The position numbers and the translations under genes are program-made. From an uncultured bacterium (lineage in GTDB: Bacteria > Armatimonadota > SYMT01), in NCBI GenBank assembly GCA_964609085.1, contig CAZSRZ010000002.1:29477-93476 (forward strand): a stretch of 64,000 nucleotides of DNA, written 5' to 3'. Shown here one piece after another: positions 6,957 through 63,791 of the stretch (the stretch's first letter is position 1; every line of letters begins with the position of its first letter). The notes beneath the pieces are model-generated. The model was not told the DNA's origin. It ran no database searches and saw nothing but the letters and a program-made list of their open reading frames with translations.

Positions 6957-7538
6957 TTACCTTTTATGGCACCGGCGGGCGGCCAGGCCGGCGGGAAGCA
7001 ACCCGGCGAGGATCAGTGCGAGGGAACCGGGCTCCGGGACAGCCGATGCCTGGAAGTCATCCAGCGTAAACGAGTGGCTCGGGCTGTCGGTGAAGATTTC
7101 GAAGCTCAGGATGTCCGTGTTCGCGGAGAAAACGCCTGGTGTGGAGACGCCAAGGTTGCTCGGAACACCGCTCACCTCGTTGATGAGTAGCGCCCCGGTT
7201 TGATTGAGGCCCGAATAGGCGCGGATGCGCAGGGTTTCGCACCAGGTGAACCAGGCGCGGAACGAGCGGACGCCGGAGTAATTGAAATTCCCGAGGATCG
7301 CATGGCCGTTGTCCTCGATCACGTTGATTCCCGAGTGGGGTGGGAACCGCGGGTCATTGAGCGAACTGGGCTTCTGCAGCACCCGGGCATTCTGGAACGT
7401 GACGCCCGCCGTCACCGCAAACTGGTTGGTGACGTTGGTGAGATCCGCAAGCCCCTCGAAGTCGATCACCGTTTGCGCGGAAGCCGGCACAGCCCAGCTC
7501 AGGCTCAGGATGCAGAGAACGCCGAAGAAGAATCGCAT
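6957..7538 (-). CDS. PEP-CTERM sorting-domain secreted protein (exosortase substrate)
   Basis: N-terminal signal peptide. The C-terminus VPEPGSLALILAGLLPAGLAARRCHKR is a VPEP motif + TM helix + basic tail, the canonical PEP-CTERM. Confidence 0.7.
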   Translation of the reverse strand: MRFFFGVLCILSLSWAVPASAQTVIDFEGLADLTNVTNQFAVTAGVTFQNARVLQKPSSLNDPRFPPHSGINVIEDNGHAILGNFNYSGVRSFRAWFTWCETLRIRAYSGLNQTGALLINEVSGVPSNLGVSTPGVFSANTDILSFEIFTDSPSHSFTLDDFQASAVPEPGSLALILAGLLPAGLAARRCHKR

Positions 7539-7589
7539 GGACGGATCCTCGCAGACTCGGGAGTGAACTCAAGCAAAACCACGGGTCAT

Positions 7590-8156
7590 CTAAGTACAGC
7601 GCTGGTTCGTCGCCGCTGTGACATCGATATGCCAGCCGGAGTCGTGGACCATCGTTCGCAGGCGTGCACGCAGTCGCTCCAGCCGCTTGCGGAGGGCTCC
7701 GTGGGTGCAGCCCAATAGACGGGCCACTTCCGGGCAGCCTCGCTCGTCCAGCAGACACATCCGGAACAATTCGCGATCCTGATGACAAAGCTGGGTTTGG
7801 AGGTCCCGCACCAACTCGCGCCACTCCCAGTGGATCCACGGGTCGTGCGCCAGCTCGTGGGCGTCGGGCTGGTAACTCGCGAGGAGACGCTCCGCGTCCG
7901 CCAGCCGGGCAGCTTCGCGGATAGCCAGCCGGATGGCCGCATGCCAGAGGTAGTGATAGAGTGCCGGGCTGTGGGCCGGGATCGTGTGCGCCCGTCGCGT
8001 CAGGATCTCCGCCGCAAAGTCCACGCCGAGGGCGTCCGCGTCCGCGGGCTGTAGCCCGGCGCGCCTGGCTGCAGCCTCCCCCAGACGGCGCAGTGCAACC
8101 ACCGCCTGGGGCAACAGGCAGGTCTCGCCCGCGAGGTATCGTCGGACCGGATCCAT
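7590..8156 (-). CDS. ECF (sigma-70 family group IV) RNA polymerase sigma factor
   Basis: Region-2-like segment (YHYLWHAAIRLAIREAAR) and region-4 HTH (DRELFRMCLLDERGCPEVARLLGCTHGALRKRLERLRARL). ATG at 8156; the longer ORF-track N-terminus is Arg/Pro-rich. Confidence 0.8.
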   Translation of the reverse strand: MDPVRRYLAGETCLLPQAVVALRRLGEAAARRAGLQPADADALGVDFAAEILTRRAHTIPAHSPALYHYLWHAAIRLAIREAARLADAERLLASYQPDAHELAHDPWIHWEWRELVRDLQTQLCHQDRELFRMCLLDERGCPEVARLLGCTHGALRKRLERLRARLRTMVHDSGWHIDVTAATNQRCT

Positions 8157-8313
8157 CGAGGCCGGCTCCAGACTGCAGCGCGGCGTGGGGACCCAAGCGT
8201 CTGGACCACCACCGCTCGATTTGCCGCTGGTCAGTTGCGGAAGTCGTGTGCGGATTCCTCTTGGAGTTTGGCGGGGCGGGCGCGGGCGGACGGTGTTGCG
8301 CCGCAACGGGAGC

Positions 8314-51306: not shown

Positions 51307-51445
51307 CTGACCGGAAGTATAGGCAGCGACTAAGAACCCGTCAACGCCTCCGCCAGCCGGCTCCCCCGGATCAGAACCGGGCAGGAGAACCCCCCTGGGT
51401 GCACGAACGCGGATGCGGACCGATTGGCAGTATTGGAGGGCGGCA

Positions 51446-54400
51446 ATGGCGACGCTTCAGGTGACGTGTCCGCGCTGCGGCGCGCAGGGGGGGGTGGACG
51501 CTTCGTTTGCGGGCCGGCAGATCCGGTGCCGCTGCGGGACGGACTTCGTGGTGCCCGCGGTCAGCCCGGCCCCCGGCGCCACTCCTGGCCCGGCGTCCGG
51601 TCCCACCGGCTCAGCGGACACCTCTCCGGCTGACTGGAGCGTGGGTCTCGAGGTCGGCGGGCGGTTCCTGGTCACGGAGATTCTTGGCGGCCCGGCGCTC
51701 TGCCGAGTGGACGACCGAGTGTGGGAAACGACCCTGCTCGTGGCTACCGCCAGTGAGGGGGACGAGGATGGCTTCACCTCCGTCGCCGACCGCTGGGTGG
51801 CGCTGGGCACCCACCCCAACATCCAGGTCGCTTACTACCTTCATCGGCTCGGCGGCCGCGCCCGCCTGGTGATGGAGGATCCTGGTCCGAATTCGCTCGC
51901 GGACCTACCGGCCGCCGCGCTGGCATCGGACCCCGGACGCCTGTGCGATCTGGCGATCCAGTCCGCCTGGGGCTTGCTGGCGCTTCACGACGCGGGGATG
52001 GTCCACGGGCGGGTGCATGCGGCATGCCTGCGGGTCACGGGGCTCGACCTGGTTAAGCTGGGGGACATCACCTTCACGTTGACTCCGGGTGAGATGGCGC
52101 CTGCTCCGGAGGTGGCTGCCGGTGCATCGCCGGGACCTCCGGCCGACCTCTGGCAATGGGCGTCCGTCTTCCACAAGCTCGGAGGTGCCGCGGCACCTCC
52201 CGCCCTGCGCGAATTGCTCGATCGCTGCCTCGCGGCCGACCCGGCGCAGCGTCCCCGAGACCTCCGTGAGGCGGTGACGGGGCTGCAGTCGATCTACAAA
52301 CAGGCGCGCGGGGACTTCTACGCACGCCCCGCGCCGCGCACCTACGCCGCGGACACGGCAAGCAACCGCGGACTGGCGCTCCTGGCGATCGGGCGTCCCG
52401 AAGAAGCCGCCGGGTCGTGGGAAGAGGCGGTCCGCGTAGCTGCGGGTCACCTGGAGGCGACCTACCACCTCGCCCTCTACCAGTGGCGAAACGGCAAAAT
52501 CGCCGATGACGAGGTCGTGCGCCGGCTCACGCCGATTGTTGCGGCCAGCACCGACTGGATGGCACCGATGTTGCAGGGGCACGTCCAGGCTGAGCGTCTG
52601 GACCGTCGTTCTGCTCTACTCGGCTACGGGGAGGCCGAGCGACTCGGAGGCGGAGAAGCTGCGGCGGTGGCGCGCCGGAGAGTCGCCGCTATCCCGGCGG
52701 ACCACGGCGGGCACGAACTCGCCGAACACCCGCACGAGGTATGGAGTCTGGGGCTGACCCCCGACGGCTCACGCGTGGTCACGGCGAGCGGCGACTCGCT
52801 CCTCCGCGTCTGGGATCTTGCTTCCGGGGAAGTCACCCACGAGCTGGCGGGCCACCAACACTCCGTCCGGGCGTCGGCGCTGAATGCCGATGGACGATTT
52901 GCCATCTCTGGGAGTTGGGACGGCACCGCCAGGGTGTGGGACATCACGACGGGTGCCGCGGTCCGGCAACTCAAGGGGGAGGCGCCGATCCATTCCGTGG
53001 CGCTGAGTGCGGACGCCCGCTATGCCCTGTCTGGCGGGGACGACCCGGTGCTTCGCTTCTGGGCGACGCAGACGGCCCAGGTGGCACGGTCGATGGAAGG
53101 CCACACGGATTCGATCCAGGCGGTGGCCCTCAATGCCGATGGTCGCTTTGCGCTGTCGGCCGGCAGGGACGGGGCCGTCTTCCTCTGGGATGTCGCTCAG
53201 GCCAGGTGCCTGCAGACGCTGAGCGGGCACACCGGCATGGTTCGAGCGGTCGCGCTAAGCGGTGACGGTCGCGTGAGCGTCACCGCGGGAGAAGATCGGA
53301 CGCTGCGGCTTTGGGACAACGCAACGGGCGTCTGCGCCCGCGTTTTCGAGGGGCACCAGGATGCAGTTGACGCGGTGGCGATCGCCCTCGCGGCCGGCTG
53401 GATCGTGAGCGGCGGCAGGGATCGCACGCTCCGTGTATGGGAAGTTGCCACCGGGCGTTGCCGGCGCACCATCGGGGGCTATCTGGGCGGTGTGCTGGCG
53501 GTCGGGCTGACGCCGGACGCACGCATTTGCGTCACCGGCAGTGCGGAGAAAACGCTGCGAACGTGGGACCTCTCCGCCTTCACGGGGCCGGACGCGATCA
53601 GCATGTCCGCGCCTCCGGCGATCAGCCGTCCGGAGCGGTCGCAAGAAGCGCAGCGGGTTCAGCGCCAGTACCGGATGCTGGTTGAGAAGGCGGCGCTGGC
53701 GGAGAACCCGGCCGCGGAACTCAATCTGCTGCGGGAAGCCCGATCGCTGACGGGTCGCTCACGTGCGACCGAGGCTCGGGAGAGGTGGCAGCGCCTATCG
53801 GGCAGCATGGTTCGGTCCGGGTTGCGCGACGTCTGGCTGGGTCGGGTGTTTGACCCACCGGAGCAGCCGTGTACCGGTCTTGCCGTGCGGGAGGACGATC
53901 TGTGGGTGCTCTCGGGCAGCCCGGACGGCCGTCCCCGATTGTGGGAAGTGGCGTCCGGACGCTGCCTAAAACCCATGGATGCGCACGGCAGCGAACTCAC
54001 CGCCGTAGGGCTGAGTCCTGATGGCCGCTGGGCACTGGCGGGCAGCATGGAGGGCAGCCTCCGTCTGTGGGACGTCGAGCGAGGACGCACAGCCCATAGC
54101 TACCTGGGTGTCACTGTGCCGACTCGCGCCGCGTGCTTGAGCTCAGACGCCCGCTGGGTGCTCTCGGGGAGCGATGACGGCATGGTCCGCGTGTGGGATG
54201 TCGCCGGTGGACGGCTTGTGCGCGTGCAGGAGGGGCATGTCTCACCGGTTCAATCCGTCGCCTGGACGGCGGACGGCCGGTTCATGTTGTCGGGCGACAC
54301 GGGCGGCACCATCCGCCTTTGGGACGCCGCCTCCGGGGCGTGCCGGCAGGTGATCGACGACCAGGCCGGTTCCGTGATGGCGCTCTCCTGCGCCCGCGAT

Positions 54401-55000
54401 GGCATCCGGGCTCTGGCAGCCGAGCACGATGGAACGATCACCCTGCTGAATCTCGACGACGGTTCGGTGATCCATCGGCTGCAGACGGAACGTATCACGA
54501 AGGCGGCTCTCACCCCAGAGGGCCGCTGGGCGGTGCTGGCCACGGAGGCGGGTGAGGTCGTCGTGTGGGATCTCCCCACCGGCAGCCGCTTGGCGTCCGT
54601 CCCCTGCGGGCCGGTCGGCGCGTTCTGCCTCTCGCCGGATGGGCACTACCTGCTCACCGCCCCGCCGGAGGGCCCCATCAGCGAGTGGATCCTCGATTGG
54701 GACCTGGAGCTCCCCCCGGTGGAAGCGTGGTCAGACGCCGCTCGCCCCTACCTGGCCGCCTTCCTCCGAGTCCACCAACCCTATGCCGTTTACCTTGCGG
54801 CGACGCGGGATGTGTCCGATGAAGAGTTGGCCAATGCGCTGGTGCGCCGCCCCGAGCCGAACTGGACCTCGGAAAACTACCCGGAGTTGCTGGCTACGCT
54901 CGCACGAGTCGGGCTCGGCTGGCTGAAGTCCGAGCGCACGTTCCACGAACTGGAGTCCATGACCGAAGCGTTCGGTCGCGCCGCTGGGAGTGGCTCCTAG
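51446..55000 (+). CDS. Large multidomain protein: MJ0042-type zinc ribbon + degenerate Ser/Thr protein-kinase-like (pseudokinase) domain + TPR-like linker + two 7-bladed WD40 propellers
   Basis: N-terminal C-P-R-C-G...C-R-C-G ribbon. Kinase-fold remnants APE (PAPEVAAG) and D.W..G (DLWQWASVFHKLG) are present, but the catalytic loop is HGRVHAACL (no HRD Asp) and no VAIK Lys is evident. At least 14 WD40 repeats follow (GH...WD patterns, e.g. LRVWDLASG, ARVWDITTG). Confidence 0.85.
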   Translation: MATLQVTCPRCGAQGGVDASFAGRQIRCRCGTDFVVPAVSPAPGATPGPASGPTGSADTSPADWSVGLEVGGRFLVTEILGGPALCRVDDRVWETTLLVATASEGDEDGFTSVADRWVALGTHPNIQVAYYLHRLGGRARLVMEDPGPNSLADLPAAALASDPGRLCDLAIQSAWGLLALHDAGMVHGRVHAACLRVTGLDLVKLGDITFTLTPGEMAPAPEVAAGASPGPPADLWQWASVFHKLGGAAAPPALRELLDRCLAADPAQRPRDLREAVTGLQSIYKQARGDFYARPAPRTYAADTASNRGLALLAIGRPEEAAGSWEEAVRVAAGHLEATYHLALYQWRNGKIADDEVVRRLTPIVAASTDWMAPMLQGHVQAERLDRRSALLGYGEAERLGGGEAAAVARRRVAAIPADHGGHELAEHPHEVWSLGLTPDGSRVVTASGDSLLRVWDLASGEVTHELAGHQHSVRASALNADGRFAISGSWDGTARVWDITTGAAVRQLKGEAPIHSVALSADARYALSGGDDPVLRFWATQTAQVARSMEGHTDSIQAVALNADGRFALSAGRDGAVFLWDVAQARCLQTLSGHTGMVRAVALSGDGRVSVTAGEDRTLRLWDNATGVCARVFEGHQDAVDAVAIALAAGWIVSGGRDRTLRVWEVATGRCRRTIGGYLGGVLAVGLTPDARICVTGSAEKTLRTWDLSAFTGPDAISMSAPPAISRPERSQEAQRVQRQYRMLVEKAALAENPAAELNLLREARSLTGRSRATEARERWQRLSGSMVRSGLRDVWLGRVFDPPEQPCTGLAVREDDLWVLSGSPDGRPRLWEVASGRCLKPMDAHGSELTAVGLSPDGRWALAGSMEGSLRLWDVERGRTAHSYLGVTVPTRAACLSSDARWVLSGSDDGMVRVWDVAGGRLVRVQEGHVSPVQSVAWTADGRFMLSGDTGGTIRLWDAASGACRQVIDDQAGSVMALSCARDGIRALAAEHDGTITLLNLDDGSVIHRLQTERITKAALTPEGRWAVLATEAGEVVVWDLPTGSRLASVPCGPVGAFCLSPDGHYLLTAPPEGPISEWILDWDLELPPVEAWSDAARPYLAAFLRVHQPYAVYLAATRDVSDEELANALVRRPEPNWTSENYPELLATLARVGLGWLKSERTFHELESMTEAFGRAAGSGS

Positions 55001-55025
55001 CTCACTTTGCTCCTCGCTGTCCGGG

Positions 55026-56693
55026 TCACTCCAGCCGGCTGAAGCGGCTGGAGATGGAGGTGTCGCCCGAGTCGCCGTCGCTCGCGAATCGAAGGTATCG
55101 CTGGGCCTCCGCGTGGTCAGGGTCCAGGCTCAGCACGCGGCGAAACTGGAAGGCGGCCTCCGCCATCCGCCCCGCCTCGTAGCGGGCGATCCCGGCCGCC
55201 AGACACCGGCGGATTTCCACGGCGCGGAGGCGGTCGGCGACTTCCGGGGTAGGGTGCAGGTCCTGCGCCTTGCGCCACAGCGTGATCGCGGTGCCCATGT
55301 CGCCCAGGGCATCCTGGGTATCTCCGGCGGCGAGGAGGGCGCTTGCCTGGCCCCGGCGGACTCGGCCGAGAGCCTCCCTGGAGGCGTGGCGCTGTGGGTC
55401 TAAAAGGAGGATGGCTTCGTGCGTTCGCTGGGTGCCGGACCAATCGCCGGCGGCTTCCAGCCGGAGCGCCTCCGCCTCCAGATCCCCGAGGTGTTGGGAT
55501 CGGGCCCGTACCATTCGATCAAACAGGCCTGCGTCCCACGGGGCCAACTCGCGGGCGGACTGCAGCCGGGAAATCGCCTCTCCTCCATCCCTCGCCGCCA
55601 GCGCGTCTTCGGCCGCGGTGATGTGGGATGCTACCTGCCTCGCGAGACTCGCCTCCAGTTCTTTCGAGGCGCTGACGTTGCTGGGGTCCGCGGCCAGGAC
55701 CATGTGGAGGTCAGCGATTGCCCGCCCGAGATCTCCAGCGGCAATGGCCCCACGGGCCTGGTCGAGGATGAGTGTCTCCGACCCGGCGGCAAAGGCGGCC
55801 TCAAAGCACATGGCGATGGAGCTTGTTAGGGTGACGAGCAGGTAGCGGCCGCTCGGAGACAGGCACACTCCTGTCGGCTCCGCGGGTAGCTGGTAGTCCC
55901 ACACGGGGTTGCCTCGGGAGTCGAGGCAGAGAAGCCGATGCTCGGCGCCGTCCGACACCACGGCTGCCGTCCAGCTTGCCGCCTCATCGGTGGCGATGCC
56001 GAGGACCGGTTGCCCGACCCCTATTCGCCAGGCGATCCCGCCGTCGCCGTCTGTCGCCAGCACGTCTCCAGCCTCCGTGCCCACCCGGAGCCGCTGTCCC
56101 CTGCGACCGAAGGCAATCGCGCTGGCCGGACTGTCGAGAGCGTTCTCCGCCAGTAGCACCCGCTCGTGGTCAAATGAGAGGAGCATCCCGTCCCGGAGGC
56201 CGACGGCGCAGGCCGACCCATCATACGCAACACCTGTGCGGGCAACCGGACCCGGAAGGTCTTTGGACCAGATGGCGCGGCCGCCGATGTCCCCATAGAT
56301 GAGGCCGTGCGACGCAAACACCTCGTCGGAGAAAGCAGCGACGAAGAAGCGGCCGTTCCGGCTCGGGGCACAGTCGCTGTAGAGAGCCCGGCGCTCGGGT
56401 TGGAAGCGCGACTTGCGTCCCTCGCGAAAGATGTAGAGGTCGTCGTCGGTCATCGCGAGCAGCACACCGGCACCGGGGAGAATCTCGAACTCCCGCACAG
56501 TCTCCACGGAGATGGCGCTATGCTCCCGCTGCTCCCCCGACACGCCCACCTCCAGGAGCTTGTACGTGCGAGTGGCGAACATGTCGGGCTGGATCAACAG
56601 GGCGTTGCCGTCATCGTCGACGGCATTCAGCCCCGACGGAATCAGGCCTCGGATGCGGTGCTGCCACAGAAGGTTGACCGTCGTTTCGCGCAC
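55026..56693 (-). CDS. Hypothetical protein: N-terminal beta-propeller (PQQ/WD-like) + C-terminal TPR repeats
   Basis: Repeated roughly 40-aa beta-sheet units with Gly/Asp turns, then Ala-rich TPR-like helices (AEAQRYLRFA, LGDMGTAITLWRKAQDL). Its start overlaps the NHL gene stop (ATGA-type overlap). Confidence 0.6.
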   Translation of the reverse strand: MRETTVNLLWQHRIRGLIPSGLNAVDDDGNALLIQPDMFATRTYKLLEVGVSGEQREHSAISVETVREFEILPGAGVLLAMTDDDLYIFREGRKSRFQPERRALYSDCAPSRNGRFFVAAFSDEVFASHGLIYGDIGGRAIWSKDLPGPVARTGVAYDGSACAVGLRDGMLLSFDHERVLLAENALDSPASAIAFGRRGQRLRVGTEAGDVLATDGDGGIAWRIGVGQPVLGIATDEAASWTAAVVSDGAEHRLLCLDSRGNPVWDYQLPAEPTGVCLSPSGRYLLVTLTSSIAMCFEAAFAAGSETLILDQARGAIAAGDLGRAIADLHMVLAADPSNVSASKELEASLARQVASHITAAEDALAARDGGEAISRLQSARELAPWDAGLFDRMVRARSQHLGDLEAEALRLEAAGDWSGTQRTHEAILLLDPQRHASREALGRVRRGQASALLAAGDTQDALGDMGTAITLWRKAQDLHPTPEVADRLRAVEIRRCLAAGIARYEAGRMAEAAFQFRRVLSLDPDHAEAQRYLRFASDGDSGDTSISSRFSRLE

Positions 56694-56696
56694 GGC

Positions 56697-57677
56697 TTAC
56701 TCCGGGGTGGCGAACTCGCGCAGGCGGATCACACGATGGTTGGCGGTGTCGGCTACGTAGACGGTGTCATCGGCCGCAACCGCCACGCCGCAGGGTCCAT
56801 TCAACGATCCGTGGCCCTGAACTTCCGTGATGATCGCCACCGACCTGCCGGCCGGATCGAAGATCTGGATCCGATGATTGCCGGTTTCGGCGACGATCAC
56901 GCGCCCCTGGCGGTCGATGGCCAGATCCTGCGGCTCGTTCAGGAACCCCGCGGCGACCCCGATGCCCCCGAATTGGCCCAACGTCTGTAGCTCGGAGGAA
57001 AAGACATGGACCACGTGGCGGCTGCGGTCCGCCACGAAGATGCGGCCCGCGCGGTCGACACAGATCCCCTGCGGGCTACCCATCAGCACTCCGCCCCGGG
57101 CGGTCAACCCGCCGATGGCCAGGGGCTGACCGTAGCGGGCCCAGACGGTCAGGCGCCGGTTGCCGGTGTCCGCGACGAACAGGTTCCCGCAGGGTCCCAG
57201 GGCGAGGCCCGTCGGTGACTGGAACTGGCTCAACCCACTCCCCGACGAACCGAAGCATCCCAGCGACGAGCCGTCCACACCGATCACCTGGACACGGGAG
57301 TTCCCCTGTTCGAGGACATAGAGCCGGCCTTCTTCGTCGACGACGCAACCCTGCGGGTTGAGAAAGCATCCCCCGAGGTGGCCACGTGCGCCGAGGACAG
57401 CGACATCTCCCTGGATCGATATGCGCTGGACCCGGTGGTTGTAGGAGTCCGCGACGAACAGGTTGCCTTCTCCGTCCACGGCTACGCCGCCGGGGGAGAG
57501 GAACTGCCCGACGCCGCTCCCTCGTTCACCGACCACTTCCACAGCGCGCCATACGGATACCGGAGTCGACGCGGCCACGGTGCGTGGGGCGGGGGTCGCC
57601 GCCGGGACTTCCTGCCGGGCGCGTTTGGGGGGTCGAGCGTCGCCGATTTCCAGGAAGTCGAATCTGTTGTCGCTCAT
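56697..57677 (-). CDS. NHL-repeat (six-bladed beta-propeller) protein
   Basis: There are six repeats of the NHL pattern, e.g. GNLFVADSYNHRVQRIS and GRVIVAETGNHRIQIFD. ATG at 57677. Confidence 0.8.
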   Translation of the reverse strand: MSDNRFDFLEIGDARPPKRARQEVPAATPAPRTVAASTPVSVWRAVEVVGERGSGVGQFLSPGGVAVDGEGNLFVADSYNHRVQRISIQGDVAVLGARGHLGGCFLNPQGCVVDEEGRLYVLEQGNSRVQVIGVDGSSLGCFGSSGSGLSQFQSPTGLALGPCGNLFVADTGNRRLTVWARYGQPLAIGGLTARGGVLMGSPQGICVDRAGRIFVADRSRHVVHVFSSELQTLGQFGGIGVAAGFLNEPQDLAIDRQGRVIVAETGNHRIQIFDPAGRSVAIITEVQGHGSLNGPCGVAVAADDTVYVADTANHRVIRLREFATPE

Positions 57678-57741
57678 CAGGGGAATTGCGTCTGGGACTG
57701 CGTGTGCTGAAGCCACGACGATCACGGCGGGGCAGTACGCA

Positions 57742-58596
57742 TCATATCCCAGCCCCCGCATACACGAAAGCCGCGGGCCCCGTCATGGTCAGTTCCAACC
57801 CCGGGCCGACGCTCACCTGCAGCGTCCCTCCGCGCGACACTACTTCCATCTCCGCACCGGATCGACCGGACAGCAGCGAGGCCACCGCCACGGCGCATGC
57901 CCCCGTACCGCAAGCCAGCGTCTCACCGGCACCTCGCTCCCAGATCCTCACCCGGGCTCGACCGGGTTCCTCCAGTGTGGTCCACATGATGGACGTGCGC
58001 TCGGGAAAGAGCGGGTGGTGTTCTAGACGCGGGCTCAGCCCGGCGAACTCCAGCTCGCTCGGCTCATGGTAGACCACCGTGTGCGCCGTCCCGGTGGACA
58101 GAGCATAGATCTGCAGCGGGGTCCCGCCGACGTCGATCCACTCACCGAGGACTTGGTTGGTCTGGAAGAGGGCGGGGATCGCAGCGGGCTCGAGCCGGGC
58201 CCGGCCCATAGCGATCCGCACATCCGCGCGCGTCCCCTCGCTCCGGGTGATCTCCACTTGTCGCACCCCGGCGATCGTCTCAATGGAGAAAGCCCTGCCT
58301 TCTACCAGGCCTTCGCGCACCGCGTACCAAGCGATGCATCTAAGTCCGTTGCCGCAATCATCCTCGGTGCCGTCCGGGTTGAACATCCGCATGCGGATGT
58401 CGGCTAAGGATGAAGGCAGGGCAGCCAGCAGTCCATCGCTCCCGATCGCCGTCCGGCGGCAACAGACCGCACGTGCCACGGCGGACCAGTCCAACTCCAG
58501 CCCGGAGAGGCCGAGACCGGTTACGACAAAGTCGTTTCCGGCACCCTCAAACTTCTGAAACGGCAGGTTCACCCGGGCTCTCGGCGGTCTCGGCAA
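57742..58596 (-). CDS. dapF: Diaminopimelate epimerase
   Basis: [14 protein letters not shown]-terminal motif and the second active-site Cys in ETLACGTGACAVAVA. Confidence 0.85.
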   Translation of the reverse strand: MPRPPRARVNLPFQKFEGAGNDFVVTGLGLSGLELDWSAVARAVCCRRTAIGSDGLLAALPSSLADIRMRMFNPDGTEDDCGNGLRCIAWYAVREGLVEGRAFSIETIAGVRQVEITRSEGTRADVRIAMGRARLEPAAIPALFQTNQVLGEWIDVGGTPLQIYALSTGTAHTVVYHEPSELEFAGLSPRLEHHPLFPERTSIMWTTLEEPGRARVRIWERGAGETLACGTGACAVAVASLLSGRSGAEMEVVSRGGTLQVSVGPGLELTMTGPAAFVYAGAGI

Positions 58597-60223
58597 CTTC
58601 GGCAGACTGGGCGTCGTCCGCCGCAGCCGCGTCCGGCATTGCTCCGCCGGCCGCTGGAGATTCAGCCGCCACGGCCGGGTGCGTGGGGGGGTGACGGCCG
58701 TACTCCTGCTCCAGAGTCGGGTGCGCTTCTGTTGCCGCTGTGTCCGACGACGCCGTTCGGGCTCGAGTGGACGCCCATTCCCGCAGCACGTCGATCTGTT
58801 CGCGCATGGTCCGGCTCAGCGGCACGGAGATCCGAATGCTGGCGAGGACGTCGTCCGTAGTGATGTCACGACCACCGTCGAACGCATCGTAGAGGGCGGA
58901 TACGATCGCCTGCTCGATCTCAGCCCCGCTGTAGCCCATTGCTGCCGCAGCGAGGGCCCGCCGGTCGAAGTTGGCCGCATCCCTCTTCCGCTTGCGGAAG
59001 TGGATATCAAAGATTTCTTCGCGCTCGGTCTGTCCCGGCAGGTCCACGAAGAAGATCTCGTCGAAGCGTCCCTTGCGGAGCAGTTCCGGCGGCAACATGT
59101 CGACGCGGTTCGCCGTGGCGACCACGAAGACCGCCGCCTTCTTCTCCTGCAGCCAGGTTATGAAGCTCGCGAAGACTCGGGCTGTCGTGCCGCCGTCCGT
59201 CACGCCGCTCGACTGGGTGCCCGAGAAGCCCTTCTCCAGCTCGTCGAGCCAAAGGACGGCCGGAGCGATCGACTCCGCCATTCTAATCGCGCGACGCATG
59301 TTCTCTTCGCTCTGACCGACGATGCCGCCGAAGATCTTGCCGACGTCCAGCCGGACGAGAGGAAGGCGCCACTGGCTGGCGATTGCCTTCGCAGCCAGGC
59401 TCTTCCCGCAGCCCTGAACCCCGAGCAGCAGGATGCCCTTGGGCGAAGGTAAGCCGAAGTCGCGGGCACGCTGGCCGAACGCGGCGCTACGCTTGCGCAT
59501 CCAGTCCTTCAAGACGTCGAGGCCGCCGACGTCCGCCATCGTCTCATCCATCCGGTAGTACTCGAGCATCCCGCTCTTCCGGATAATCTGTTCCTTCTCG
59601 GTGAGGATCGTGTCCACGTCGAACTTGCGCTTCTCCACCAGGCTCCGCGCAAACACGTTCTCCGCTTCGTTCGCCGTCAGGCCCACCGCAGCTTCGATCA
59701 CCCGCTCCCGCTCCGCCGGGTCCAATTTCGTCTCGATCTGCGCGTTGTTCTTGACCGACTGGATGATGTTCTCCAGCAGTCGATCCAGATCTTCGTGGTC
59801 CGGCAAGGCGTAGTCGACGACCGTCACCTCTTTCTCCAGCTCGGGCGGCAGCTTCAACGTCGGCGCCAGGACGACCAGCGTCTTGTAGCTGGTCTTCAGT
59901 GAGTAGGTCAGGTCCCGCAGCCGGCGAGTGATGTCGGTGTCGGTGATGAAGGGGTGGAAGTCTTTGAGGACGAAGACGGCCGGCTCTGTGGATTGCTCGA
60001 TGTAGTCCAGCACAGCCATCGGTTGGCGGGTGTTCTTGTCGCGCGCGGTCGGAGAGGTCACCAGCCCCTGCGTCACGGTCCACACAAACATCCGCTTACC
60101 GCGGTTGGTGCTGATCGCGCGCAGTGCATCCTCGACGCGCTTCTCTTCCCAGGAAACCACGTAGATGAGTGGATACCGTGCCCGGATGAGGATCTCAAGT
60201 TCCTGGTCGACCGTGCTGGCCAT
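58547..60223 (-). CDS. AAA+ family ATPase with ~250-aa N-terminal domain and acidic disordered C-tail
   Basis: Walker [16 protein letters not shown], Walker [10 protein letters not shown], and sensor/Arg-finger region [29 protein letters not shown] precedes the ATG at 60223. Confidence 0.85.
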
Positions 60224-60246
60224 GGCGGCGCTCCCTGCCGGCGGGG

Positions 60247-60495
60247 TCACGCCCCCTCGGGCTGGACGACCTCGACGCTGATCTCATGCACCATGCCGTC
60301 GTCGGTGGCGACCCACTCTTCCTTGAAGCTGCGGAGAGAGATATCGTTGCGCGTGTCCCGGAGGAGCCGGGTGAGCTGCTGCCCGAAGTTGCGCTCTGTG
60401 GAGGCCGCCTGTATGGCGCGAGCGGGGGCGCTGTCGGCCACGTCGGAGTGATTCTCCGTTCGTGCTTTCAGGACCTGACGGTTGGTATCAGCCAT
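60247..60495 (-). CDS. Small hypothetical protein (82 aa) immediately upstream of the AAA+ ATPase
   Basis: Intact ORF on the same strand ending 24 nt before the ATPase ATG. No recognisable family; it could be a non-coding leader. Confidence 0.35.
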   Translation of the reverse strand: MADTNRQVLKARTENHSDVADSAPARAIQAASTERNFGQQLTRLLRDTRNDISLRSFKEEWVATDDGMVHEISVEVVQPEGA

Positions 60496-60530
60496 GTGAA
60501 TTCATCCTGGCGACGCGGCGGACCGGGGCC

Positions 60531-60596
60531 GAGAGTGGGCGAGCGGTCGAGAGTCGGCGAGCGGTCGAGAGTCGGCGAGCGGTCAAGAGTCGGCGG
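60531..60596. repeat. 18-bp tandem repeat, about 3.6 copies (GAGAGTSGGCGAGCGGTC)
   Basis: Read directly from sequence. The copies lie at 60531-60548, 60549-60566, 60567-60584 and a partial copy at 60585-60596. They sit in the divergent intergenic region between the small ORF/AAA ATPase operon and the sugar-phosphate isomerase gene. Confidence 0.8.
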
Positions 60597-60710
60597 ATTG
60601 TATCATGTGAGGCCGCGCAGCAGAGGGACGGCCCCGATCCTGAAACCTGACTCCGTCCTCTGCCGGCACCACACTCAGAACAGAGGGATCCCCCGAGGAG
60701 AGTGAGTAGG

Positions 60711-61634
60711 ATGCTCGATCGGCGCACCATTTTGGCAGCGGGAGCGCTTCCCGCGCTGGCGCGGCAGGCCCATGCGGCGTCGACGGTAACGTGCCAGGTC
60801 GCGTGCACGACCTATGTCTACCGCCGCTTCCCCCTCCGGCGCGCGCTTGAGGGCATTGCCGGCGCGGGCTTTCGGTTCGTGGCCTGGGGCACCGAGCACC
60901 GGGAGGCGGATGGTCGCTCGACCCCCGTGATGCCGCCCGACGCACATCCGAGTGTCGCCGCGGCGCTGGCGAAGCGGTGTCGGTCGATGGGGCTCGAGCC
61001 CGTGATGTTGTTCTCCACCATCTACCCGGAACACCAGGATGGGCTGACGGTGCTTCGCCGGCGGATACAGCAGGCCGAGGCGGCGAGAATTCCACAGGTT
61101 CTCACCTTCGGCCACATCGAGAAGGATGGGCGTGACCGATGGCGAGAGCGGTTCCGCCTGCTCGGCCCGGAGGCGCGGAAAGCCGGCGTAACCATCGTCA
61201 TCAAGCAGCATGGGGGCGAGTCAGGCACGGGCGATGCCTGCGCCCGGTTCACTCGCGAGCTGGGAGAGTCACACGTCAAGGTGAACTACGACGCTGGCAA
61301 CGTGATGGACTACCTGAACATCGACCCCATTCCCGATCTGCGTTCCTGCCTGGACGAGGTTCGAAGCTTCTGCATCAAGGATCACCGCAATTCACCGAAG
61401 GACGAGGATTGCGGCCCGGGGTTTGGGGAGATCGACCACTACCGATTACTGGACCCTGCGATCAACCCCCGGTTGGTCAGGGCTGCGACATTGCCGCTGT
61501 GCTGCGAGAACATCTTCCCGCCGCTGCTGGGGATGCCCACCTCTCCCTCGGTCGTCGATGACTACGCACGCCGGGCCCGTGTGTTCCTGGAGACCGTGAT
61601 TGCCGGGCTGCGGAAATCTGCGGAGGAGAGCTGA
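60711..61634 (+). CDS. Tat-exported sugar phosphate isomerase/epimerase (xylose-isomerase-like TIM barrel)
   Basis: Tat signal DRRTILAAGALPALA with a TIM-barrel AP_endonuc_2-like pattern. RBS GAGGAG precedes the ATG at 60711. Confidence 0.75.
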   Translation: MLDRRTILAAGALPALARQAHAASTVTCQVACTTYVYRRFPLRRALEGIAGAGFRFVAWGTEHREADGRSTPVMPPDAHPSVAAALAKRCRSMGLEPVMLFSTIYPEHQDGLTVLRRRIQQAEAARIPQVLTFGHIEKDGRDRWRERFRLLGPEARKAGVTIVIKQHGGESGTGDACARFTRELGESHVKVNYDAGNVMDYLNIDPIPDLRSCLDEVRSFCIKDHRNSPKDEDCGPGFGEIDHYRLLDPAINPRLVRAATLPLCCENIFPPLLGMPTSPSVVDDYARRARVFLETVIAGLRKSAEES

Positions 61635-62723: not shown

Positions 62724-63791
62724 GTGCTCTGGCAGCGCCCCATCCCCGGGGGCTGGTCGCAGCCCTCCACCTCGAAGGGGCGGCTGTTCATCCAGACCGA
62801 AGACCAGAAGCAAGAGATCGTGCTCTGCCTCGAGCCGAAGTCGGGGAAGACGATCTGGGAGTTCAAGTACGACTGCGACTACGATCAATACCCGGACATG
62901 GACCAGCGGTTCAAGAGCGGGCCGCGGTCTACGCCGACAGTGGATGGGGATCGCGTCTACACCCTCGGCACCACCGGCATCCTGAACTGCCTGACCGCAG
63001 CGGAGGGCCGGTTGATCTGGCAGCGGGATCTGAAAGAGATGAATGGCGGGAAGTCGCCGGAGCTTGGCTATACTCACTCGCTGTTCATTTCCGGCGATCT
63101 GCTGTTCACCCACCCGGGCGGGATGAACTCGTCGCTCGCGGCGCTCAAGAAGCAGGACGGCAGCGTGGTTTGGAAGGGTGAGAGCGACACGCTTGGGTAC
63201 AGCACGCCTATCCTGATCGAGTTCGAGGGCCGGCCGCAGCTCATCCACTTCACCGGGCGCGGAGTAGTGGCGGTGACCCCCTCGACGGGTGCCGTCCGCT
63301 GGCGCTATGACTGGAAGACGAACTTCGACCTCAACGTCGCGACGCCGATCCACCACGAGGGCCAGGTGTTCATCTCCTCCAACTACGGCCACGGTGCGGC
63401 AATGCTGCGGATCGAGCGCGATGCGCCGCCGAGGGAGATCTACACCACCAAGGCGATGCAGAATTGGTTCACCGGCTCCATCCTGCATCGGGGCCACCTC
63501 TACGGGTTCAACGACAACAGGCTGACTTGCCTGGAGTGGCAGACCGGAGCCCTGAAGTGGGACAAGTCCGGCCTGGGACGCGGCAGCCTGTTGATTGCGG
63601 ATGGGCAATTGATTCTCTTGAGCGAGCGGGGCGAGGTCGTGCTTGCCGAGGCAACCCCGGAGGCCTACAAGGAAACGGCCCGCTGGAAGTCGCCGCTGCA
63701 GCCGCCGTGCTGGACGAGCCCCGTCCTTTCCAACGGAGTGCTTTACATCCGCAATCAGGAGCAAATGCTCGCCCTGGCCATGACCCCTTGA
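62724..63791 (+). CDS. PQQ-like beta-propeller repeat protein (BamB-like fold); true N-terminus probably upstream (~62565-62601)
   Basis: PQQ-repeat W/G patterns (DGDRVYTLGTTGILNCL, GEVVLAEA). The frame stays open upstream to 62490 and encodes a signal-peptide-like LILIAGLAVRAAA and the canonical mature start EDWPHWRGPRRDN, but there is no ATG/GTG/TTG. Confidence 0.75.
   Translation: MLWQRPIPGGWSQPSTSKGRLFIQTEDQKQEIVLCLEPKSGKTIWEFKYDCDYDQYPDMDQRFKSGPRSTPTVDGDRVYTLGTTGILNCLTAAEGRLIWQRDLKEMNGGKSPELGYTHSLFISGDLLFTHPGGMNSSLAALKKQDGSVVWKGESDTLGYSTPILIEFEGRPQLIHFTGRGVVAVTPSTGAVRWRYDWKTNFDLNVATPIHHEGQVFISSNYGHGAAMLRIERDAPPREIYTTKAMQNWFTGSILHRGHLYGFNDNRLTCLEWQTGALKWDKSGLGRGSLLIADGQLILLSERGEVVLAEATPEAYKETARWKSPLQPPCWTSPVLSNGVLYIRNQEQMLALAMTP

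Follow-up and report, generated by a model that had tools for sequence, protein, structure and literature searches.

A stretch of 64,000 nucleotides from the genome of an uncultured bacterium of the Armatimonadota (assembly GCA_964609085.1, contig CAZSRZ010000002.1, positions 29,477 to 93,476; here called the window) contains, at 55026-60495, a block of five minus-strand genes organized around a Ycf46-type AAA+ ATPase. The gene for this ATPase (58547..60223; 558 amino acids, ATG at 60223) is the anchor of the system. Downstream of it on the same strand lie the genes for two repeat proteins: an NHL-repeat propeller of 326 amino acids (56697..57677, ATG at 57677) and a protein of 555 amino acids that joins a propeller to TPR-like helical repeats (55026..56693, GTG start). 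Each of the two carries the short sequence RFxxLE at one free end. We place at about 0.55 the probability that these genes constitute a conserved remodelling module in which, we infer, the two propeller scaffolds dock to the ATPase by means of RFxxLE.

The association of the three genes is found well outside this genome. A homologue scan covering one genome per GTDB species returned 521 relatives of the ATPase, and 80 loci were kept for comparison by tblastn with the window proteins and by clustering of all their ORFs (open reading frames); the loci are cited here by number. An NHL orthologue is encoded on the ATPase strand in 18 loci, and in 17 of these it directly follows the ATPase gene; the exception is L003, in which dapF, DUF2750 and MscL genes have been inserted between the two. 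L023 has a further partial copy of the NHL gene. The gaps between the two ORFs are mostly 7-25 nucleotides (nt). A propeller-TPR orthologue lies within about 1.3 kb of the ATPase gene in seven loci, and at 1.9-5.5 kb, behind inserted genes, in five more. The loci with adjoining ATPase and NHL genes belong to Chthonomonadales and other Armatimonadota, including a metagenome-assembled genome of Chthonomonas calidirosea (L043). The order ATPase, NHL and, usually, propeller-TPR thus recurs in about 20 species-level genomes of the phylum, as well as in independent metagenome contigs. The flanking genes differ completely among loci, for example the his operon and HpcH in L001, and ilvD and biotin genes in L002.

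An earlier note on this DNA had put forward the entire block, together with a neighbouring WD40 protein, as a possible functional unit, an idea to be given up if its genes were never syntenic elsewhere. They are syntenic elsewhere, and the proposal holds for the ATPase, the NHL protein and, in part, the propeller-TPR protein. It does not hold for the remaining members. A dapF gene adjoins the ATPase gene only in the window, in L001/L003 and in L007, and is absent from the other approximately 18 loci of this kind; its restriction to the window and its two closest relatives, L003 and L007, points to a lineage-specific insertion. None of the related ATPase loci encodes a counterpart of the WD40 protein, which drops out of the system. 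Judged from gene order, the conserved unit is the ATPase with the NHL protein and, often, the propeller-TPR protein, and dapF and a small gene upstream of the ATPase, orf82, are passengers. The operon is vertically inherited in Armatimonadota.

The principal new finding is the short terminal RFxxLE motif of the two scaffold proteins. In the NHL protein it is RFDFLE (57648..57665, minus strand), residues 5-10 of the N-terminal sequence MSDNRFDFLEIGD. The start of this gene is almost certainly the ATG at 57677 (M29 of the ORF), and not the upstream ATG at 57761, since all orthologues begin at the equivalent Met. Among 19 orthologues that are 31-55% identical overall, M1, R5, F6 and E10 are invariant in all 19, and the adjoining linker is hypervariable in both length and sequence. 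The consensus start is M-(S/T/P)-D-R-F-(D/N/E)-(F/Y)-(L/I)-E-(I/L/F)-(G/D). All six Arg codons are used for the motif Arg across the NHL orthologues, which indicates, at the level of sequence, that selection acts on the peptide and not on the RNA. In the propeller-TPR protein the motif is RFSRLE-COOH (residues 550-555; 55029..55046, minus strand), directly before the stop codon. The pattern [DS]RF[ST][RKM]LE stands at the exact C-terminus of 11 of 13 orthologues and no more than one residue from it in 12; in L020 the sequence runs on for one residue (RFSRLEQ), and in L025 it is RFSRLD with a seven-residue extension.

A search for the pattern RFxx[LIM]E in the all-frame ORFs of the 80 loci (735,595 residues) gave 64 occurrences, of which 42 are at protein termini. 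A slightly looser pattern applied to all six frames of the window gave five matches, two of them the NHL and propeller-TPR termini. When ORFs with a terminal motif were located in 78 ATPase loci, 38 of 39 were no more than 5 kb away from the ATPase gene, and its strand carried every one of the 39. With distances up to 5 kb counted as near, the motif occurs in 38 of 1871 near ORFs versus 1 of 1025 far ORFs (Fisher p = 1.5e-6). A reciprocal test was made by scanning metagenomes with the NHL alignment, motif-less NHL genes being counted only if at least 2 kb of upstream sequence was available. The ATPase gene was directly upstream in three of four motif-bearing NHL loci (L091, L092 and L104) versus none of 47 motif-less ones (hypergeometric p ~ 2e-4). 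L092, an Armatimonadota-type metagenome contig, also has a DUF1257 gene (7220-7705), placed after the tagged NHL gene and before the tagged propeller-TPR gene; its order, ATPase, NHL with N-terminal RF tag, DUF1257 and, further on, propeller-TPR with C-terminal RF tag, joins the two kinds of neighbourhood, that with DUF1257 and that with tagged NHL and propeller-TPR genes.

The motif is also present on proteins of unrelated fold near the ATPase. In six distant loci the carrier is a TPR protein whose sequence opens MGRFEWIELG. Other carriers are a protein with a double zinc ribbon (MDNKDRFGKIE), one with pentapeptide repeats that has GRFRNLEL at its C-terminus, and two small proteins in an Omnitrophota contig. 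Several loci that had not been used to find the motif conform to it. In L087 a SNF2 helicase encoded right after the ATPase gene starts MDERFEWLEIPEDDE, which contains the tag RFEWLE; the equivalent helicase of L086 has SRIEWIQIPEE near its N-terminus. In L090, a phage-like contig, a 206-residue protein ends RFTELE-stop. In Mycobacterium phage Shida (L084), gp92 (149 amino acids, 7775-8224) ends RFSQLEH-stop and is encoded 2.2 kb downstream of the AAA-ATPase gp98. Terminal RFxxLE was not found in L088, L089, the Treponema, Pseudanabaena and Geminocystis plasmid loci or the IncC plasmid locus, and the motif is not universal in the ATPase family. The NHL gene of L053 was set aside because its product is another kind of NHL protein, hydrophobic at the N-terminus and untagged. 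A resemblance between the tag (GRFDxLE) and the Arg-finger segment of the ATPase, KGRFDEIF, was set aside as probably coincidental. The literature searched held no description of the RFxxLE motif or of the Armatimonadota operon.

The window ATPase matches database protein P0001 at 100%; an exact-sequence look-up returned no record. Its relatives number in the thousands and are typically about 505-520 amino acids long, with 55-83% identity over some 87% of the length. PF00004 (AAA) was found at residues 273-403 of the 567-residue ORF (E = 1.3e-28), and the approximately 250 residues that precede it have no Pfam match. The earlier note had described this region as a domain of unknown function, a description now superseded: a fold search identified residues 1-240 (59504..60223, minus strand) as a degenerate AAA+ module, with SWEEKR in place of the P-loop and with its closest folds in proteins of the Cdc48/p97, VAT and NVL type. 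An attempt to recover an internal duplication with hhalign, by comparison of the N-module with the C-module, gave only a lid-to-lid alignment (E = 0.098); it was the fold search that settled the matter. The N-module matches none of the double-psi barrel, the M41 protease, or an OB fold or coiled coil. The active module (residues ~250-505; 58709..59476) belongs to the classical clade, and all four motif classes are present: Walker A GVQGCGKS at residues 268-275 (59399-59422), Walker B WLDELEK at 325, sensor-1 ATAN at 369, and the Arg fingers RKGRFD at 383. In a phmmer comparison it matched both D1 and D2 of Cdc48/p97 (E ~1e-52 each). The protein thus consists of two stacked AAA-type modules, of which the first is dead and the second live. 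It stands outside the named housekeeping families, the NCBIfam scores being far below the cut-offs for CDC48 (109 bits versus about 803), PAN (107 versus 500), FtsH (91 versus 600) and pup_AAA or Mpa (58 versus 505).

Several observations speak to the importance of this ATPase. Identity between the window and L003 is 83% for the ATPase, 56% for DapF, 54% for the NHL protein and 45% for the propeller-TPR protein; by this comparison the ATPase is constrained far more tightly than an enzyme of core biosynthesis. In the listed loci its identity declines with taxonomic distance, from close Armatimonadota to other phyla. One homologue of 864 amino acids (P0093) contains homing-endonuclease/intein domains (PF05204 and PF05203). 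Inteins typically reside in highly conserved, important genes. At its C-terminus the window protein has an Ala/Glu/Pro-rich tail of about 53 amino acids (residues 506-558; 58550..58708), which is genome-specific and is overlapped by the start of dapF. Its GC content at the three codon positions is atypical, 0.84/0.61/0.66 compared with 0.65/0.44/0.82 for the ATPase, and the homologues end at about 505-520 residues; the tail resembles a read-through extension that arose with the insertion of dapF.

The NHL protein consists of the N-terminal tag, a Pro/Ala-rich linker of about 35 residues and a six-bladed propeller, with six NHL repeats recognized by PF01436 (E = 2e-45). There is no visible hydrophobic, signal-like segment at its N-terminus. 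Identification as ScyF was rejected (172.6 bits versus a cut-off of 350). At the other end, 16 of 19 orthologues terminate in HR(V/I)(L/V/I)R(L/V/M)(A/T/E/V)W(E/D/H/R)-stop, most often LRLAWE; the proteins of the window, L003 and L032 have a different and longer C-terminal tail. The propeller-TPR protein (13 orthologues, 25-45% identical) was modelled with AlphaFold2 (AF2) on a two-row alignment, a word-indexed homologue search having yielded only two proteins, probably on account of low-complexity words. The model (mean predicted local distance difference test score, pLDDT, 76.5) has a WD40-like propeller at residues ~25-298 (55800-56621, minus strand) and a TPR-like solenoid at 299-539 (55077-55799, minus strand). 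These two domains are confidently predicted, and the N-terminal 100 residues and the tail are not. An N-terminal propeller followed by helical repeats is therefore a predicted architecture, in keeping with a TPR_2 match of 32.6 bits (cut-off 27) and weak propeller matches. Foldseek ranked WD40 propellers best (TMt up to 0.74); propeller-plus-solenoid proteins of the IFT-A type appeared at low TM (E ~1e-12), and this likeness is at the level of architecture only. The tail, residues 540-555, forms a short helix with pLDDT below 50 and stays free of the TPR and propeller of the same chain, as would fit a partner in trans. Both proteins are cytoplasmic, soluble scaffolds.

The manner in which the module would work can be outlined by analogy. 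The ATPase would form a hexamer that remodels or unfolds proteins, like Cdc48/p97, VAT and NVL. Each scaffold would present RFxxLE on a flexible tether, at the N-terminus of the NHL protein and at the extreme C-terminus of the propeller-TPR protein, and the motif would dock to the ATPase, most plausibly to the degenerate N-module. The docked scaffolds may be adaptors, presenting whatever is bound by their propeller and TPR surfaces, or they may themselves be the clients that are remodelled. Tentatively, at a little under even odds, this can be extended to the proposition that Ycf46-family ATPases in general recruit partners by an RFxxLE tag at a free N- or C-terminus, which would mark adaptors or clients of different kinds. 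On the main reading the module would be a device of cellular proteostasis or stress remodelling and not an anti-phage system. A role of this kind is suggested because the operon of Ycf46, the likely cyanobacterial counterpart, is induced by stress (PMC7496141; bioRxiv 10.1101/2025.07.21.665879), and because genes for GrpE and Hsp70 lie beside a homologue on a Pseudanabaena plasmid. The earlier note had mentioned stress modules along with anti-phage ones, and on the former it may have been close to the mark.

A number of points weigh against this reading. Pore loop 1 of the ATPase is GIVG, compared with MWYG in Cdc48 D2, so that the aromatic residue is replaced by Ile-Val; GGIVG aligns with SKMAG of Cdc48 D1 and is aliphatic like that loop. 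The K/M-[YWF]-x-G signature of a threading AAA unfoldase is thus lacking, so that processive unfolding cannot be taken for granted. The support for orthology to bona fide Ycf46 is indirect only, and the source names of family representatives in two cluster look-ups were only generic ("SpoVK/Ycf46/Vps4 family"). Many members of the family have no motif-bearing neighbour, among them those in Capsulimonadaceae loci, on cyanobacterial and IncC plasmids, and in L088 and L089. The match at the C-terminus of an SMC-like protein in L057 may be due to chance, and the motif-bearing NHL gene of L101 has no ATPase gene within 6 kb. The ATPase is a common neighbour of the motif partly by construction, since most loci were retrieved by way of it; this choice is corrected for only in the near/far comparison and in the NHL-anchored test, the latter with four motif-bearing loci. 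Finally, DUF1257 and DUF2997 proteins accompany the ATPase in many lineages, and either could be the real receptor.

This last point leads to an alternative that we regard as unlikely, although it has the most to be said for it among the rivals: RFxxLE would be read by another receptor, either DUF1257/DUF2997 or the TPR and propeller surfaces of the scaffolds, and the ATPase would merely be co-regulated. In one form of it, included in the same assessment, the TPR of one scaffold captures the tag of the other. TPRs and WD40 and NHL propellers are classical peptide-binding modules, and DUF1257 adjoins the ATPase in 21 distant loci, several with a motif-bearing protein, as it also appears in L092. 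Against these facts stands the ATPase as the sole gene common to all motif-bearing neighbourhoods. L087 has a tagged SNF2 helicase with no TPR, propeller or DUF1257 protein in reach; the window and L003-L052 are without DUF1257 within 10 kb; and the AF2 model leaves the C-terminal tag undocked on its own TPR and propeller. It is still harder to believe that there is no functional unit at all, the genes being mere neighbours and RFxxLE a product of chance convergence or low complexity, the least credible reading that we considered. The motif is short, with four specified positions, and the neighbourhood is loose in places: about a third of the loci with ATPase and NHL genes lack propeller-TPR or have it at a displaced position, and insertions of dapF, MscL and DUF2750 are tolerated. 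Chance does not readily account for 42 of 64 occurrences being terminal and nearly all of these within 5 kb of the ATPase gene, for motif residues that are invariant across orthologues with 31-55% identity, or for predictions confirmed on new loci (L087, L090, Shida and the NHL-anchored test).

The remaining alternative, raised in the earlier note, is an undescribed system against phages or other mobile elements, in which the scaffolds would sense the invader and the ATPase would serve as motor or effector. Distant relatives of the ATPase (33-45% identical) do occur in phages, a streptococcal satellite, phage-like contigs and 686 plasmid records, the neighbours on a Geminocystis plasmid include RloB and a zeta toxin, and there are weak matches to the defence ATPases IetA and IteA. 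These matches, in both PADLOC and NCBIfam, are to the generic AAA core only and fall below the cut-off, and, as had been said of the block from the beginning, no nuclease or other effector domain, nor any IetS-like protease, is recognizable in the operon by Pfam, PADLOC or NCBIfam. The flanks are chromosomal housekeeping genes (dnaE, a sucC-like gene, cutC and dapF). Defence genes are patchy in distribution and fast-evolving. An ATPase far more conserved than DapF, with identity that tracks taxonomy, shows the opposite pattern, and we consider the anti-phage interpretation very improbable. The block is not a defence island.

G+C content across the window is 64-69%, and the five consecutive ORFs of the block all exist as the earlier note had described them, with the codon-position GC pattern of genuine genes in this DNA. 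The first is orf82 (60247..60495), a small gene 23 nt upstream of the ATPase. Its stop codon, TGA at 60249-60247, is separated from the ATG at 60223 by those 23 nt, with AGGGAG preceding the ATG, so that the reported proximity of an 82-residue ORF to a 558-residue ATPase was accurate. Its proposed role as a tiny partner of the ATPase has not survived. The gene itself is real, because its codon-position GC is coding-like (0.68/0.45/0.82, compared with 0.65/0.44/0.82 for the ATPase) and it has three homologues, with 59% identity and 38 invariant columns. It has no tblastn match at any of the 80 ATPase loci, where a relaxed search gave only noise (E > 0.1), and in the one long contig with a homologue, L083, no ATPase gene was found in the approximately 3.8 kb available downstream. 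Searches of Pfam, NCBIfam, PADLOC and PHROG gave no match. From its position, orf82 is probably co-transcribed with the ATPase gene in this genome.

The dapF gene (57742..58572; stop at 57744-57742) probably begins at the GTG at 58572 and overlaps the 3' end of the ATPase gene by 26 nt. The ORF opens with TTG at 58596, and the later start is preferred because the TIGR00652 alignment opens at residue 13 of the TTG-started ORF. The product is DapF, with 198.2 bits against a cut-off of 114.65 for TIGR00652 (residues 13-281) and two DAP_epimerase domains. The NHL start codon follows 64 nt beyond the dapF stop. The NHL gene ends in TAA at 56699-56697; then come GCC and the propeller-TPR GTG at 56693-56691, which has GGAG seven bases upstream. 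The two genes are therefore separated by a 3-nt spacer rather than overlapping, as had been thought, and their tight packing is real. A scan of 54900-60800 for promoters and terminators gave nothing above the shuffled background.

On one side the block meets a convergently oriented WD40 gene, the stop codons of this gene (at 55000) and of the propeller-TPR gene being 25 nt apart; on the other side is a divergent intergenic region of 206 nt. The WD40 protein (51413-55000, plus strand; 1195 amino acids), a pseudokinase according to the earlier note, has no kinase Pfam match at E < 0.001 in residues 1-429, where only TPR_16 was found; PADLOC gave weak PD-T4-6 (kinase-like) matches at residues 130-219 and a HEAT-ARM_XIII match through the WD40 part. 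The intergenic region separates orf82 on the minus strand from a xylose-isomerase-like TIM-barrel gene on the plus strand (60702-61634) and contains, at 60530-60595, 3.7 copies of the 18-nt tandem repeat CGAGAGTCGGCGAGCGGT with 95% matches, which could be a regulatory array for the operon. A PQQ_2/BamB-like propeller gene lies 2.2 kb upstream of the block (62724-63791, plus strand; E = 2e-29). This third propeller gene bears out the description of the neighbourhood as propeller-rich; it is not conserved beside the ATPase in other loci.

Beyond the Armatimonadota, distant members of the ATPase family were reached through a search with the N-module, which alone has 5410 cluster representatives at 50% identity. 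Homologues of the N-module are present in Sericytochromatia, and full-length homologues with 41-44% identity are found on plasmids of Pseudanabaena, Geminocystis and Planktothrix. In 21 of the more distant loci a DUF1257 protein follows the ATPase gene, and a motif-bearing protein is encoded in several of them as well. DUF1257 occurs together with DUF2997 beside the ATPase in L053, L086, L089 and the Pseudanabaena and Geminocystis plasmids. Hidden Markov model searches found no DUF1257 match in the six-frame translation of the window, nor was one found within 10 kb in L003-L052. The Pseudanabaena galeata plasmid (L172, 580-8737) encodes on one strand GrpE, Hsp70, DUF1257, an ATP-binding protein, a hypothetical protein, DUF2997, the ATPase homologue and a hypothetical protein of 734 amino acids; the GrpE and Hsp70 genes place the ATPase family beside a chaperone system. 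On the Geminocystis plasmid the neighbours include RloB, an ATP-binding protein and a zeta toxin.

The family also extends to mobile elements. The ATPase matches phrog_8638 over its full length (E = 7e-158), and 34 mycobacteriophage records, including the Corndog cluster, carry it, as do a streptococcal satellite and phage-like contigs. Of the 686 plasmid records with a homologue, 576 are predicted to be conjugative; they are mostly from Enterobacterales and include IncC plasmids. In the Escherichia coli IncC plasmid LC744494.1 (L174, 4974-10233) the homologue (34% identity) is followed by a protein of 130 amino acids and a DUF2997-like protein of 64, and three further downstream proteins end (K/R)RKIILD-stop, a tail that might play a part similar to that of RFxxLE. 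Two other arrangements were encountered. In L086 (7482-11374) and L087 (7501-11036) the ATPase is followed by an SNF2-family helicase and then by a protein of about 560-630 amino acids without a Pfam match, which looks like a second conserved operon type, one of the two loci being Sericytochromatia-like. In L088 (2069-7515), on a contig with spore-coat genes, the homologue comes directly after genes for FtsK/SpoIIIE (EssC-like) and WXG100 proteins, a type VII secretion context.

Ycf46-type ATPases are thus widespread, in many bacterial phyla, on cyanobacterial and other plasmids and in phages, and the named family is also plastid-encoded; their function is still described as unknown in the literature searched. 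The tag provides a sequence rule for listing candidate partners of the ATPase in genomes that use it, and if RFxxLE is indeed a general recruitment tag, partners of a Ycf46-family ATPase could be found from sequence alone wherever it is used. Tractable carriers are Chthonomonas calidirosea, with the operon of L043, and the Corndog-cluster mycobacteriophages of M. smegmatis, with the ATPase and a tagged protein. As for the block itself, dapF and orf82 are passengers among its five genes.

Among known systems, IetAS is the nearest of the defence systems. IetA/IteA, like the window ATPase, belongs to the classical AAA clade and gives the best PADLOC match (PDLC02196, E = 2.7e-23). The identification was rejected: the match of 81 bits covers positions 116-345 of the 374 in the profile, the N-module is not covered by the IetA profiles, and the score for NCBIfam NF042959 is 73.6 bits where the cut-off is 510, over the AAA core only (residues 264-494). 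Full-length homologues with the same two modules are those of phrog_8638, gp96-98 of the Corndog-cluster phages and the AAA triad of IncC plasmids, with 33-34% identity over 84% of the length. These homologues differ in being borne on mobile elements and in being much more divergent, and the IncC locus is without RFxxLE.

Cdc48/p97/VAT and NVL/Rix7 are the closest solved sequences to the ATPase and provide the closest folds to its N-module, and the stacked two-module architecture is common to both; in several families of the Cdc48/NVL type one ring is weakly active or inactive. The adaptors of Cdc48/p97 are diverse and bind the ATPase through short linear motifs (SHP, VIM, VBM and PUB/PIM). 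The window ATPase differs in that the first module lacks a P-loop and that neither a double-psi-barrel N domain nor an aromatic residue in pore loop 1 is present; RFxxLE is unlike any of these p97 motifs. In Vps4 (MIT-MIM) and ClpX (SspB XB) a tethered terminal peptide of the partner docks to the non-catalytic N-terminal part of the AAA+ hexamer, delivering the partner or its cargo. The likeness to the present case is an analogy of mechanism only, the N-domains being an MIT three-helix bundle and a zinc-binding domain, versus a degenerate AAA module here, and the motifs being unrelated.

The family to which the ATPase most probably belongs is Ycf46. For Ycf46 the literature reports induction by stress, together with effects on the use of CO2 and on circadian timing. 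Slr0374 is Ycf46; its operon, slr0373-0374-0376, is strongly induced by stress (PMC7496141). In Synechococcus the counterpart (Synpcc7942_0417) is in a three-gene operon induced by severe oxidative stress in a (p)ppGpp-dependent manner (bioRxiv 10.1101/2025.07.21.665879). DUF1257 is Ycf35 (PMC4284462), and ycf35 and ycf46 have been lost together in red-algal plastids (PMC5940233). Ycf46 differs from the present system in having two small proteins as partners, compared with the NHL and propeller-TPR proteins here, and the phylum of the window is non-photosynthetic. In architecture the two agree: Ycf46 has about 500 amino acids, with a single classical AAA module after some 250 conserved residues and Walker A near residue 265. 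A Cys-containing tryptic peptide of 12 residues is known from Slr0374, at 260-271 with Cys269 (PMC13214033); the sole Cys of the window ATPase, Cys272, is in a 12-residue segment at 263-274, which fits these coordinates. A genomic link to DUF1257 (Ycf35) and DUF2997 is seen in the wider ATPase family, in the distant loci and plasmids named above, and DUF1257 in contig L092, but not in the window or within 10 kb in L003-L052. Like Ycf46, the window ATPase resides in a small operon with uncharacterized partners.

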